Part shown: piece by piece, positions 1,334 through 3,705 of the stretch
Layout: every line of letters starts with the position of its first letter
Numbering within the stretch: position 1 is the first letter of the stretch
Origin: a virus
Taxonomy: Duplodnaviria > Heunggongvirae > Uroviricota > Caudoviricetes
Virus record (IMG/VR): IMGVR_UViG_2778261165_000003
Location: 1 to 4,855 of that record
Length of the DNA: 4,855 nt
Direction: 5' to 3' (one strand)
Notes under the pieces: generated by a model
The model's database searches: none
Seen by the model: the letters and a program-made list of their open reading frames with translations, nothing else
Told to the model about the DNA's origin: nothing
Program-made: the position numbers and the translations under genes

Positions 1334-3226
1334 TTAATACTCCGTCACGTTTTCCTGTCGCCACGCCTCGTCATATTCCGATTTCGGCATATTGGCGATG
1401 TAGCTATATGGCGATCCTGATTCAAGTTGCAGGAACTGGTGCGATTGCTCGTCAAGGAACAACGGGACACCACCTTCCCAACCTTCGCCGTTACGTTGTT
1501 TTTCAAGCATCAAAACAGATGCCGGAGATGCCAGTAGCTGTTCGTCCTTCTCTGACATCTTTTCACCACTCTGAACTCTCTGTAACGCTCTCTCGCGAGC
1601 CTTGTTACGCCAGATGATGAAAAGGTTGTCTGTCAGGTCTGTTATCGCTCCAGAGCCTTTTACGTCCATTTTCCCGGTTGGTTTTTCTTCGCTGTCTCCT
1701 TTTCGCGAGTGAGTAACGAGAATGACGTGGGAGTTTGTTTTGTTTTTGAAGTCGCAAATCGAGTCAACAAACGCCTTCTGCCCGTTATAGTCATCGTCGC
1801 CTATGCCACATTTCATCAGGCTGTCGATGATGAATAACTGGATCCCGTATCGGCGGCGAGCGTAGTCGAATATTTCGATCAGCCTGTCGGCTTTCGCCGT
1901 TCCGGTCAGGCAAAACACCCAAAGTCTTTCGTCATAAAATTTAAATGCAGAGTCAATTTCCAGCACTGGCGGCATCTTGCAGCACGTCGCCTGACGGGTA
2001 AGGCGCTTAAGGAGAATACCAGGCTTCAGCTCAAGTGACGCGATGCACGTCTTCACACCCTGACGCATTGCCTCAAGTGCCATATGCCCGACAACCTCCG
2101 TTTTTCCGTGACCGTTCACACCATTGACCAGCGTCAACTCTGCCTCACGGAACTGGAATTTATCTGCCAGAGATTCCCACGGTGGATTAAACAGATACTG
2201 CTGCTTGCCGTAGAAAGCGTTGATAGTGTCCTGGTAAAACTCTCGCGCGCTGTAGAGTTCTTCAGGATCGAAGTAGGATGCCGTGCCGATGTACTGCCAG
2301 ATTTCATCCTCGGTAACACCGTTCATCAGGCATTCGTTGATGTCTTTGTACGGCAGAGTAACAAGACGGCAACGATGTTCACCGAGTCGGCTTGCGATTT
2401 CCCTTGCGGCTTCACGACCAACATCATCAACGTCCATCGAGATGAATATTTCCTCAAACCTGTCGAGGTTGTGATACTCAAACTCAATCCACTGTTGCTT
2501 AGCGCCTTTCCCGCCACCAAACGGCACGGATAACGCCGAGATGCCGTATTGCGCATAGCTCATACAATCAATTTCGCCTTCGCAAAGTACAACCGCCCTC
2601 ACGCCAGCGTCCAGAGCCTGCCATCCGAACAGACAAGGTTCGCAATCACCTTCTGCCATAATGACTTTCTTCCCGTCCGGGCGCTCAGTGCTGATTCGCT
2701 TGACCTGCAACAACTCACCATCGCGTTTGTACGGAATCACCAGAGCATCCAGTTCCAGCTCTCCATTCCACACCTTGCCGCTGACAACCTCGTAGCGCTT
2801 TACGATTTCTGGCGATATGCCACGCGATTGCAGGTACTCAAGATGGGATTCTGTTCTGGTAACGTAGCGGGCGATTTTCTTGCGATCAGGTCTGGAGAAT
2901 TTTTTCTCACGTCTGGCATCGAAATGGTGATCGTCATCCTTGATACCGAGAAATGCTTTCGCTTCCTGCATAGCCTGATGCAGGTTAATTCCTCGACATG
3001 CCATCCACAAATCAAGCATGTCACCGCCGTCTCCCTCAGCGAAATCAGCCCATTTTTTCTTGCCGCTAAGGTTGACCTTAAGGCTGTTTCCCTTGTCACC
3101 GTTGACGTTACCGGCAACCCACTCATGCCCCTCTTTCTTGCCGTTTGGCAACAGGTGCGGAGCCACCCTGTCAACCTGCGACCAAAGCAGGTCGCTGAGT
3201 TCTGATGGACTCAAAGGTGCCTCCAT
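1334..3226 (-). CDS. Bifunctional DNA primase-helicase (TOPRIM primase fused to a RecA-fold SF4 DnaB/T7 gp4-like helicase)
   Basis: 630-aa ORF with GAGG 6 nt upstream of the ATG at 3226. TOPRIM signatures: VVLCEGEIDCMSYAQYG (conserved Glu) and FISMDVDDVGREAA (DxD). Helicase signatures: Walker A LVNGVNGHGKTEV (GxxGxGKT), Walker B IQLFIIDSL, then HVILVTHSRK and GSGAITDLTDNLFII, matching the SF4 motif order. The N-terminus has a DnaG zinc-ribbon-like segment lacking the Cys ligands. Confidence 0.9.
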   Translation of the reverse strand: MEAPLSPSELSDLLWSQVDRVAPHLLPNGKKEGHEWVAGNVNGDKGNSLKVNLSGKKKWADFAEGDGGDMLDLWMACRGINLHQAMQEAKAFLGIKDDDHHFDARREKKFSRPDRKKIARYVTRTESHLEYLQSRGISPEIVKRYEVVSGKVWNGELELDALVIPYKRDGELLQVKRISTERPDGKKVIMAEGDCEPCLFGWQALDAGVRAVVLCEGEIDCMSYAQYGISALSVPFGGGKGAKQQWIEFEYHNLDRFEEIFISMDVDDVGREAAREIASRLGEHRCRLVTLPYKDINECLMNGVTEDEIWQYIGTASYFDPEELYSAREFYQDTINAFYGKQQYLFNPPWESLADKFQFREAELTLVNGVNGHGKTEVVGHMALEAMRQGVKTCIASLELKPGILLKRLTRQATCCKMPPVLEIDSAFKFYDERLWVFCLTGTAKADRLIEIFDYARRRYGIQLFIIDSLMKCGIGDDDYNGQKAFVDSICDFKNKTNSHVILVTHSRKGDSEEKPTGKMDVKGSGAITDLTDNLFIIWRNKARERALQRVQSGEKMSEKDEQLLASPASVLMLEKQRNGEGWEGGVPLFLDEQSHQFLQLESGSPYSYIANMPKSEYDEAWRQENVTEY

Positions 3227-3705
3227 GCGTTTCCTCTGCGGATTGTGGAAATTTGCATTTCACTCACTCCGTATTTAGTGGATAGTTCGCTTAGTTTCAT
3301 ACCAACAGAATTCCTGATATCAATCACATCAGTTTCAGATAGTTTTGCCCTACCATTAAAAACTCCCTTTGCGCTTTTCAGTCCGATGCTAAAAGCATGT
3401 TTTAAATTCTCTGAGCAGGTACACCATTCCAAGTTCCAAATGGCGTTATCCGATTTGTCGCCGTTGATATGATTTACTTCTGGCTTGCAATACGGATTTG
3501 GGATAAATAATTGAGCTACAAGACGATGAACTTTTAACGTCTTCTGAATCCCATCGGAACACAAAGTGACTCTTAGATAACCCTTGTTATCCGGAGATGG
3601 ATTCAAAAACCTGCCTCTTAAATGTGAATAAACACGACCGTCTTTGGTTACAGAGTATTTACCCTCATAACCAGGTATATATTCTCCAACTTCAAGGCTC
3701 ATCAT
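3211..3705 (-). CDS. HNH endonuclease (NUMOD4 + HNH_3 type, homing-endonuclease-like) with a C-terminal HTH
   Basis: 164-aa ORF with GAGG 5 nt upstream of the ATG at 3705. N-terminal NUMOD4-like IPGYEGKYSVTKDGRVYS; HNH_3 core LKVHRLVAQLFIPNP...VNHINGDKSDNAIWNLEWCTCSENLKH; C-terminal HTH-like LSELSTKYGVSEMQISTIRRG. The 3' end overlaps the primase-helicase start by 16 nt. The gene looks more AT-rich than its neighbours, judged by eye. Confidence 0.85.
   Translation of the reverse strand: MMSLEVGEYIPGYEGKYSVTKDGRVYSHLRGRFLNPSPDNKGYLRVTLCSDGIQKTLKVHRLVAQLFIPNPYCKPEVNHINGDKSDNAIWNLEWCTCSENLKHAFSIGLKSAKGVFNGRAKLSETDVIDIRNSVGMKLSELSTKYGVSEMQISTIRRGNAWRHL

Follow-up and report, generated by a model that had tools for sequence, protein, structure and literature searches.

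Gene content of the locus

The window, by which we mean the whole stretch of 4,855 nucleotides that was analysed, carries on its minus strand a lambdoid replication module of the ES18/mEp043/Stx-phage type, in which an open reading frame (ORF) for a putative HNH endonuclease lies between an O-like replication initiator and a primase-helicase (Table 1). The sequence-only reading had placed an HNH gene between genes of these two kinds, and the profile matches bear this out, with HTH_36 and phrog_270 on the upstream side and Toprim and DnaB-like domains on the downstream side; the counterpart of the primase-helicase in the ES18 record, gp61, is annotated as T7 gene-4-like. The region upstream of the HNH gene had been taken for intergenic DNA, and is in fact a conserved 35-codon gene. 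This small ORF is kept from Escherichia to Xenorhabdus, Providencia and Arsenophonus with a dN/dS of about 0.2 (0.18-0.28), is annotated as gp60 in ES18, and is called as a 35-aa gene in loci L010 and L011; its TGA overlaps the ATG now used by the HNH gene (ATGA). No complete E. coli genome or phage record was found to contain the mosaic of the window as a whole; the best matches reach 82% coverage and are without the HNH gene.

Table 1. Features of the replication module and of the inserted cassette, in window coordinates.
Feature	Position	Strand	Basis
O-like replication initiator, 243 aa	3813..4544	minus	HTH_36 E 4.7e-14 (Pfam), phrog_270 E 5.8e-69
35-codon ORF (MKSKIKSLLVAGYNHGWLSISFVGFWFKNLNLRES), ES18 gp60 homologue	3702..3809	minus	sequence reading, conservation
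Shine-Dalgarno GAGGG, 4 nt upstream of ATG 3703-3705	3710..3714	minus	occupied/empty alignment
HNH endonuclease ORF, 164 aa	3211-3705	minus	Pfam, PHROGs, I-HmuI alignment, fold model
NUMOD4 of the HNH ORF	3562-3681	minus	PF07463, aa 9-48
HNH_3 catalytic core of the HNH ORF	3403-3534	minus	PF13392, aa 58-101
C-terminal three-helix HTH-like domain of the HNH ORF	about 3238-3336	minus	
Inserted cassette, 499 nt in place of 8 nt CGCCAAGT	3203..3701	minus	alignment against empty alleles
GGAGG, substitute Shine-Dalgarno, 5 nt upstream of primase TTG	3220..3224	minus	sequence reading
TTG, probable start of the primase; shares TTGA with the HNH stop	3212..3214	minus	RefSeq, empty-allele comparison
Recoded primase codons 2-4, AGT CCA TCA (empty: ACG CCA AGT)	3203..3211	minus	allele comparison
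Primase-helicase (Toprim + DnaB-like), 626 aa from TTG	1334..3214	minus	Pfam Toprim_2, AAA_25, DnaB_C; phrog_239 E 1e-170

Domains, fold and conserved residues of the HNH protein

Both domains proposed for the HNH ORF score above their Pfam gathering thresholds (NUMOD4: E 1.6e-10, 41.5 bits against a cut-off of 23.4 bits; HNH_3: E 2.3e-9, 37.2 bits against 24.8 bits), and the assignment agrees with a match to phrog_59, 'HNH endonuclease' (E 1e-56). The protein aligns with I-HmuI at 28% identity (E 7e-14), which makes that enzyme its sole strong match by sequence. Residues H60, N78, H79, N91, N100 and H103 are invariant in 51 homologues, and H79, N91 and N100 line up with the ...DH...N...N motif of I-HmuI; the catalytic roles of these conserved residues are presumably those known from published work on that enzyme. 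Asn78 is the counterpart of I-HmuI Asp74, and the Asn is invariant throughout the family.

The AlphaFold2 model of the protein (pLDDT 94.7) places strands at residues 17-58. When it was compared with the PDB using Foldseek, the top match, and the sole strong one, was I-HmuI (1u3e_M; E 2.8e-9, 165 aligned columns, TM 0.60), with an rmsd of 8 Å that is due to the arrangement of the domains; helices 124-156 gave weak additional matches to HTH proteins. Taken together, the alignment and the model indicate that the ORF encodes a predicted I-HmuI-like NUMOD4-HNH-HTH nuclease. By analogy with I-HmuI we assume that it nicks DNA, as opposed to making double-strand cuts. The gene has a dN/dS of 0.12-0.17, a value indicating that its function is maintained by purifying selection.

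Empty and occupied alleles of the primase start

Initiator/primase alleles that lack the HNH gene (empty, as opposed to occupied, alleles) are abundant. The gene is present in 5 of the 292 complete E. coli genomes that have the junction; in the other 287, a 711-nt junction query shrinks to 220 nt, the empty site. No HNH gene was found at this junction in 39 phage records or in 26 species-representative loci. The sequence of empty alleles is GAGGGAATC-ATG-ACG-CCA-AGT-GAA, with CTGAGGGAATCATGACGCCAAGTGAACTYAGCGACCTG included in the empty junction of mEp043/ES18, and in more than ten genera they present a clean native Shine-Dalgarno-ATG junction that is coupled to the 35-codon ORF.

Alignment against the empty alleles delimits a cassette with a net gain of 491 nt, made up of the HNH ORF after the ATGA, a substitute primase start and the recoded primase codons 2-4. 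Its junctions were mapped to the base and are the same in all occupied alleles. On the upstream side, the 35-codon ORF has the same sequence in E. coli alleles of either kind, and the 3' end of the initiator is kept in all alleles whichever N-terminal type they have; the initiators at other occupied alleles are either HTH_36-type or Phage_rep_O-type.

On this comparison the HNH gene is an insertion at the translation start of the primase-helicase. The earlier proposal, a later insertion that was then fitted into the replication operon, is upheld by the empty alleles, the mapped junctions, the composition, the catalytic residues and the signals of horizontal spread described below; the gene is neither present everywhere with matching composition nor lacking in catalytic residues. 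That it is a selfish homing-type gene which arrived later is strongly supported by this evidence as a whole.

Replacement of the primase initiation region

GAGGG and the ATG at 3703-3705 start the primase in empty alleles and the HNH gene in occupied ones. The substitute Shine-Dalgarno of the primase, GGAGG, lies in the two codons TGG AGG, which encode Trp-Arg at the C-terminus of the HNH protein, and is kept in the Cronobacter and Enterobacter clades; the 62% clade has a separate AAGGAGG after the HNH stop, giving AAGGAGG-N8-ATG-GGC-CCA-TCC for the primase. Read in this way, the cassette gives the primase a substitute initiation region made from the last codons of the HNH gene.

For the primase start we favour the TTG at 3214 as the probable one, because RefSeq annotates the 626-aa form and because the N-terminus that results, M-S-P-S-E-L, is as long as its M-T-P-S-E-L counterpart in empty alleles. 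In the Cronobacter allele a GTG takes the place of this TTG. The primase could also start at an in-frame ATG (3224-3226), which would add four residues. The 16-nt overlap of the HNH and primase genes that had been noted from the sequence holds if the primase starts at this ATG (3226), but is reduced to the four nucleotides of TTGA with the favoured TTG. The fit of the gene into the operon, noted at the same time, is real but closer than a 3' overlap, since the primase's own Shine-Dalgarno, ATG and ATGA coupling have been captured. A search around the HNH gene for a promoter or terminator of its own gave nothing above shuffled expectation.

Downstream of the start, the recoded codons AGT CCA TCA are found in 20/20 occupied and 0/13 empty alleles, and TCN Ser codons are present in all four occupied clades. 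These codons are a candidate for what is left of the homing site or for its immunity side. Since some empty alleles of other genera have TCN Ser codons as well, the recoding could be mere donor sequence that was carried along; AGT-CCA-TCN is found in empty alleles such as L025.

Base composition

The HNH gene has a GC content of 0.400 and a GC3 of 0.364, the lowest GC3 in the window, compared with 0.508 and 0.576 for the primase and 0.466 and 0.484 for the initiator, and in every clade its GC3 falls short of the primase's by 0.2-0.3. The AT-richness suggested by the sequence-only reading is therefore real relative to the flanking genes, but is matched by other small genes of the window: the 35-codon ORF, the phrog_2239 gene and orf47 also lie near 0.38-0.41. 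Because these are equally AT-rich, we rejected GC content as proof of foreign origin and use composition as supporting evidence only.

These values also bear on whether the gene might be a domesticated part of the replication machinery, either nicking phage DNA for replication or recombination, or acting mainly through a lowering of primase translation by the change from ATG to TTG. Co-transcription and translational coupling within the replication operon would suit such a role, as would the purifying selection on the gene. We nevertheless consider it very unlikely, as about 98% of modules that are near-identical in other respects lack the gene, among them those of the well-studied, viable phages ES18, mEp043, Sf101 and phi24B, its composition is deviant, and its distribution does not track the host gene.

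Candidate homing target

A cluster of AACCAG/GGTTATAACC repeats just upstream of the HNH gene had been proposed to include its recognition site. The enrichment of AACCAG is genuine (10 copies in the window against 2.0 expected, a number reached in 0 of 200 shuffles) and GGTTATAACC is a true palindrome, but the repeats lie within the 35-codon ORF and not in intergenic DNA. The cluster does not differ between E. coli alleles with and without the HNH gene, and in the occupied alleles of Cronobacter and Enterobacter the palindrome and two of the three copies of CTGGTT have been lost via synonymous changes, which speaks against a role in recognition. A per-site association scan from -240 to +1100 found fixed differences between occupied and empty alleles at six positions, all in nucleotides 1-12 of the primase, and besides these two weak singletons (p about 0.02). 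Since this is the only systematic occupied/empty difference, the first 12 nt of the primase ORF are the better candidate, and the predicted homing target is likelier to be the primase start than the repeat cluster.

I-HmuI-type enzymes that have been characterised make their nick no more than a few nucleotides away from the site of insertion, and I-HmuI cuts both intron-plus and intron-minus DNA (PMC3428280); the recoded codons need not, therefore, confer immunity. For the free-standing endonucleases of T4, the cut usually lies hundreds of base pairs from the gene that encodes the enzyme (PMC2988022), which makes a distant target conceivable. Recognition or cleavage in the repeat cluster, or elsewhere at a distance, would draw on this ability to cut far off (PMC2988022), on the tolerance of I-HmuI for cutting its own allele (PMC3428280) and on the excess of AACCAG. 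We judge it quite improbable, given that the cluster belongs to a coding sequence under purifying selection, is unchanged between empty and occupied E. coli alleles and has decayed in other occupied ones, and that the scanned interval holds no other occupancy-associated allele.

Three ideas were rejected in the course of this comparison. A distant protected cleavage site found no counterpart in the scan, which returned the junction positions and the two singletons. Long co-conversion tracts were set aside since the Salmonella occupied alleles, compared with the window, show the same identity profile as the Salmonella empty alleles; the lack of an extended tract argues against a distant cut site, although recombination since then could have removed it. 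The repeat cluster was also dismissed as an origin or target, as the ES18 record puts a lambda-like ori in the O-like gene and the repeats decay synonymously elsewhere.

Diversity and mobility of the cassette

Among 18 alleles, the cassette has a nucleotide diversity of 0.0002, or one segregating site in 503 nt, compared with about 0.012 in its flanks; ten of the occupied loci came from an exact-protein look-up, which biases against nonsynonymous variation but does not explain why synonymous variation is missing as well. In the adjoining primase there are about 15 segregating sites per 250 nt. Cassettes of E. coli-type and Salmonella-type alleles are 98.6-99.6% identical, while the primases of these two types of occupied allele are 79-95% identical and are 94-98% identical to those of empty alleles of the same type. 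A neighbour-joining tree of the primase (drawn without support values) mixes occupied with empty alleles, and synonymous divergence (pS) between the window and Cronobacter is 0.44 for the HNH gene and 0.76 for the primase. All HNH relatives of at least 61% identity are located at the primase-start site, and those at about 50% are in other phage modules. The mobility of the cassette is well supported by these comparisons.

We propose, with a probability of roughly 75%, that the cassette carries a free-standing I-HmuI-like homing endonuclease gene which inserted exactly at the primase-helicase start and is spreading by homing. The HNH protein would be made only while the early-right operon is transcribed, during infection or induction, at which time several related phage genomes may replicate in one cell. 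The enzyme would then nick or cut alleles without the HNH gene, either at the primase start (ATGACGCCAAGTGAA) or close to it; in carriers this sequence is split by 491 nt and differs at 6 of 12 positions. Repair by recombination from an HNH-bearing genome would copy the cassette in, with very short conversion tracts.

Alternatively, the cassette could be a passive passenger, spread from phage to phage by nothing more than homologous recombination of the mosaic replication module, its nuclease being kept as a benefit to the phage and not for driving its own copying, for example as a weapon harming competing or co-resident lambdoid genomes. Lambdoid modules recombine freely, diversity in the flanks is as high for occupied as for empty alleles, and a gene that benefits the phage would be expected to show purifying selection just the same. 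There are also documented cases of marker exclusion by phage endonucleases (PMC2988022). We regard this explanation as unlikely, since near-zero diversity up to the very edges of the cassette would need very recent and repeated transfer of the exact segment, including transfer between Salmonella-type and E. coli-type primases without any flanking tract, and strict fidelity to one site over 61-100% protein identity is a hallmark of homing; competition and homing can, moreover, coexist.

The relatives down to 61% identity that share the site imply that the association of the HNH gene with the primase start is old, as it would be if the gene were ancestral and had been precisely deleted in most lineages. 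Such a history is scarcely credible against the clean native junctions of empty alleles in more than ten genera, a cassette that has much lower diversity than its flanks and is not tied to lineages of the primase, and the GC3 deficit found in every clade.

Relation to known systems

The closest characterised likeness of the HNH protein is I-HmuI of Bacillus phage SPO1 (1u3e; with I-HmuII and I-BasI), which is of similar size (174 aa, against 164 aa here) and has the same three parts, namely an N-terminal NUMOD4-type beta-sheet region, an HNH core and a C-terminal helical/HTH region. In both cases the target, here a predicted one, is an essential phage replication gene. The gene described here differs in standing free at the start codon of a primase-helicase: no group I intron or other RNA family was found around it in Rfam, where the one hit was a chance-level Trp_leader (E 0.61), and the ORF is complete from start to stop codon, with an intact gene on either side, which is why we describe it as I-HmuI-like yet free-standing.

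In this respect it resembles MobE and the other mob/seg genes of phage T4 ('intronless homing'), which are likewise free-standing, placed between essential phage genes and sporadic among relatives. MobE overlaps the upstream nrdA, suggesting translational coupling, and mob/seg genes move by gene conversion (PMC2988022; PMC2790892). The T4 enzymes typically cut hundreds to thousands of base pairs away and leave long co-conversion tracts, whereas the occupancy-linked sequence here stops at most 8 nt from the cassette. Unlike the mob/seg genes, the HNH gene seizes the initiation region of its target and brings a replacement, and its host is a temperate lambdoid prophage rather than a T-even phage.

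Two further comparisons come from lambdoid phages. HNH_3/HNH-AP2 genes of the nin region belong to the same Pfam family and are sporadic between conserved early genes (for example at 991-1602 of L002, with others in L008, L013 and L077), but they are different proteins at different sites (39% identity over 64 residues for the example in L056), and none of those examined sits at a start codon. The LAGLIDADG intein in the Stx-phage primase-helicase (phi24B P, 968 aa) is a homing-type element in the same essential gene; unlike the HNH gene, it lies in frame in the helicase domain, is removed by protein splicing and belongs to an unrelated nuclease family. Full-text literature searches returned general work on free-standing HNH genes and nothing on this HNH element. 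The cassette is a clear but ordinary case of a known kind of mobile element, and not a new kind of system.

Its value lies in offering an unusually clean natural case of a free-standing homing-type gene in temperate phages of enterobacteria, with empty site, occupied site, diverged clades at the same site and signals of recent spread together, and in showing a way for an element to occupy an essential replication gene and leave it unharmed, through capture of the ribosome-binding site and start and provision of substitutes. It also yields a precise prediction, that ATGACGCCAAGTGAA would be cleaved in ES18-/mEp043-type primase genes and the recoded allele spared, and two corrections of annotation, namely TTG as the probable start of the primase, and a conserved gene of 35 codons in the gap that had been called 'intergenic'. 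More speculatively, and less likely than not, the clade may specialise in homing into the initiation region of an essential gene with a portable replacement (Shine-Dalgarno, start codon and recoded first codons), so that the target is never inactivated and expression of the nuclease is timed and limited via the ribosome-binding site and upstream coupling of its target. If this were general, homing genes would have in such 'start-codon capture with initiation-region replacement' a third harm-avoiding route, beside introns and inteins; if true, the change from ATG to TTG could also alter primase dosage in carriers.

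The HNH gene as an insertion

Of 292 complete E. coli genomes matching a 711-nt query across the initiator-primase junction, five carry the HNH gene at 99.0-99.7% identity; in the other 287 the junction match shrinks to about 220 nt and HNH is missing. It is also absent from all 39 matching phage records and from all 26 primase loci of representative species, which range from Shimwellia to Xenorhabdus, Providencia and Arsenophonus. Empty alleles, which lack the cassette, read ...CTGAGGGAATC-ATG-ACG-CCA-AGT-GAA-CTY..., giving a primase N-terminus of M-T-P-S-E-L. Occupied alleles read ...CTGAGGGAATC-ATG-ATG-AGC... 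into HNH at the 5' junction; at the 3' junction HNH ends TGG-AGG-CAC-CTT-TGA, and the primase frame is TTG-AGT-CCA-TCA-GAA-CTY. Mapped to the base, the cassette is 499 nt (window 3203-3701) in place of 8 nt. Judged from these alignments the HNH gene is an insertion, which bears out the sequence-only reading of a later arrival; the HNH-free relatives to which that reading had looked make up the large majority of E. coli loci.

One occupied locus, L004 (E. coli elppa4, NZ_CP083512.1, about 4529-4560), retains the empty-allele sequence CGCC after ATGA (ATGACGCC-TGAGCC...), which shifts the reading frame of an otherwise identical HNH relative to the captured ATG. The RefSeq product there is shorter, at 155 aa, and this copy is either inactivated or the relic of an imprecise junction.

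The window genes belong to the early-right replication and nin segment of a lambdoid prophage. The nearest phage records are Stx2 phages (phi24B, Min27), followed by mEp043, Sf101, ES18 and epsilon34, and no phage record covers more than 82% of the window. The 'tail protein' label of phrog_1913 is implausible for the 47-aa ORF at its position, because in related prophages the place is taken by DUF2740 or comparable ORFs of 47-48 aa; the PHROG is probably mislabelled.

Genes of the window, in gene order
Feature	Position	Strand	Assignment
47-aa ORF, between cII and initiator	4541-4684	-	phrog_1913, E 4.7e-22
O-like initiator	3813-4544	-	HTH_36, phrog_270
35-codon ORF	3702-3809	-	ES18 gp60 homologue
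HNH ORF, 164 aa	3211-3705	-	NUMOD4, HNH_3, phrog_59
Toprim/DnaB-like primase-helicase	1334-3214 or 1334-3226	-	phrog_239
Next gene		-	phrog_2239
Next gene		-	DUF7301
53-aa ORF		-	
NinB		-	

Capture and replacement of the primase start

Comparison of occupied with empty alleles shows that HNH is now read from what were the Shine-Dalgarno sequence (GAGGG) and ATG of the primase, and that it is now HNH whose start overlaps the stop of the upstream 35-codon ORF as ATGA. The suggestion that the gene had been fitted into the operon thus understates the case, as it not only abuts the primase but has taken over its initiation signals. The primase start is re-supplied from the 3' end of HNH: its Trp-Arg codons (TGG AGG) contain a GGAGG, and 5 nt downstream comes a TTG that shares bases with the HNH stop as TTGA. 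The Cronobacter clade (81% protein identity) has GTG in place of this TTG; in the clade at 62% identity (IMG/VR contigs and a protein named for Pantoea) HNH stops at TAA, with its own AAGGAGG-N8-ATG-GGC-CCA-TCY downstream. On sequence comparison, these different 3' arrangements indicate that the mobile unit includes the replacement initiation region, which is compacted in the window's clade.

RefSeq begins a 626-aa primase at the TTG, and an alternative gene-caller start, an ATG 12 nt upstream, gives 630 aa. We favour the TTG, while regarding it as unproven, because the N-terminus then equals the empty-allele length. The 16-nt HNH/primase overlap described earlier holds for the longest primase ORF and gives way to the TTGA overlap if the TTG is used. 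No promoter or terminator stands out for HNH, and so it should be carried on the early-right transcript.

Protein family and composition

Both domains of the proposed HNH_3/NUMOD4 endonuclease exceed Pfam thresholds (NUMOD4 E 1.6e-10, HNH_3 E 2.3e-9), phrog_59 matches at E 1e-56, and RefSeq names the protein 'NUMOD4 motif-containing HNH endonuclease'. The protein aligns from residue 10 to 151 with I-HmuI, an intron-encoded nicking endonuclease (E 7e-14); there is no group I intron around HNH, and the gene is therefore free-standing. Residues H60, N78, H79, N91, L92, W94, N100 and H103 are invariant among 51 aligned homologues. A confident AlphaFold2 model (pLDDT 94.7) has an N-terminal beta-sheet, a beta-beta-alpha core and three C-terminal helices; in Foldseek its sole strong PDB match is I-HmuI (1u3e), spanning all 165 columns, with I-PpoI matching the nuclease core and HTH proteins weakly resembling the C-terminus (E above 0.5). 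HNH is indeed more AT-rich than its neighbours, with GC and GC3 of 0.400 and 0.364 against 0.508 and 0.576 for the primase and 0.466 and 0.484 for the initiator, and its GC3 likewise falls 0.2-0.3 short of the primase value in the three diverged alleles compared, those of Cronobacter, Enterobacter and an IMG/VR contig.

Evidence for mobility

In the 503-nt cassette one site segregates across 18 occupied E. coli-type alleles (pi 0.0002), compared with 15 in the first 250 nt of the primase (pi 0.012) and four in the 108-nt small ORF; flank diversity equals that of empty alleles. Ten of the 18 loci were retrieved by exact-protein look-up, which removes nonsynonymous variants but does not explain the total absence of synonymous ones. 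A less biased set, the window and five BLAST-found genomes, has one SNP and one indel in the cassette. Empty and occupied alleles intermingle in a neighbour-joining tree of the primase, where the nearest neighbours of the window's primase are two empty alleles.

In the occupied alleles of Salmonella the cassette is 98.6-99.6% identical to that of the window, while their primases are 79-95% identical to the window primase by segment and 94-98% identical to Salmonella empty alleles (ES18, SEN22, S107). Their identity profile against the window equals that of the Salmonella empty alleles, which argues that no long conversion tract accompanied the cassette. Synonymous divergence between the window and the Cronobacter allele is 0.44 for HNH and 0.76, a saturated value, for the primase; an HNH dN/dS of 0.12-0.17 implies that the protein is maintained rather than decaying. 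All relatives at 61% identity or more lie at exactly this site (Cronobacter, Enterobacter, Salmonella, the protein named for Pantoea and IMG/VR contigs), and those at about 50% lie in head and tail modules of unrelated phages.

The T4 seg and mob genes, with their 'intronless homing', are the functional counterpart of the cassette, which differs in its setting: by analogy, this would be intronless homing by an I-HmuI-type enzyme in a temperate lambdoid phage. We found no paper describing the element. Start-codon capture with a replacement initiation region is a neat and possibly under-appreciated arrangement, within the known logic of homing-type elements, and the cassette is a very good experimental candidate.

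Candidate target site

In a scan from -240 to +1100, fixed differences between 20 occupied and 13 empty alleles fall only at primase nt 1, 5, 6, 10, 11 and 12; the sites 3 and 6 nt beyond are polymorphic among occupied and empty alleles alike. The Ser4 codon is TCN in all four occupied clades and AGT in the closest empty relatives. The target is probably at the primase start, next to the insertion site, and the pattern fits, but does not prove, an I-HmuI-like enzyme acting beside its insertion site; the split site and recoded codons would shield the occupied allele. An adjacent target with protection is not proven, because T4 free-standing endonucleases often cut at a distance (PMC2988022), I-HmuI cleaves DNA with and without its intron, its own allele included (PMC3428280), and TCN Ser codons also occur in some empty alleles of other genera. 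Four such empty loci (L025, L028, L031 and L035, at about 2501-2515) read ATG-AGT-CCA-TCT-GAA or ATG-ACA-CCA-TCA-GAA, much like the recoding linked to the cassette; such alleles could be resistant by nature, represent the donor-type sequence or be traces left where the cassette was lost.

The AACCAG cluster had been taken as intergenic and as possibly including the recognition site. AACCAG occurs 10 times in the window (2.0 expected), and the 35-codon ORF, which fills the supposed gap, contains three copies (3730-3778) as well as the GGTTATAACC palindrome. This ORF, annotated as gp60 in ES18 and left unannotated by RefSeq in the records examined, is kept across many genera from Escherichia to Xenorhabdus and Providencia (dN/dS about 0.2); it has no Pfam family, its product is hydrophobic and its stop overlaps the next gene's ATG. 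We do not favour the cluster as the recognition site, because it is coding and conserved, does not differ between empty and occupied E. coli alleles, and is broken by synonymous changes in Cronobacter and Enterobacter occupied alleles, and because the ES18 record places a lambda-like origin elsewhere, within the O-like gene. Three more copies, about 50 nt apart at 4208-4313 (-) and 4479 (+), lie on the coding strand of the initiator gene; they may be related to initiator binding, since the origin iterons of ES18 and lambda lie in this part of the gene.

Other elements in related prophages

The primase-helicase of Stx phages (L001 1744-4650, phi24B gene P; also L071) is 968 aa because its helicase domain carries an in-frame intein (Hint and LAGLIDADG); the gene thus hosts a second homing element, unrelated to HNH. 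Other HNH_3 or HNH-AP2 genes, unrelated to the window HNH, are scattered among the primase, NinB and Dam genes of related prophages (L002 991-1602; L008 8857-9375; L013 7455-8066 and 8984-9511; L077 6103-6651); free-standing nuclease genes abound in the nin region. In L044 (E. coli ECMA0423) and L045 (Shigella flexneri SFBU1023) the primase match (2501-3616) ends at residue 372 and the continued frame runs into stop codons, so that the gene is interrupted or truncated. The occupied prophage L009 (4540-5000) has lost most of the initiator gene: an HTH-type N-terminus is joined to the final ~50 O-like codons, and the small ORF and HNH follow immediately downstream. This prophage is probably defective.
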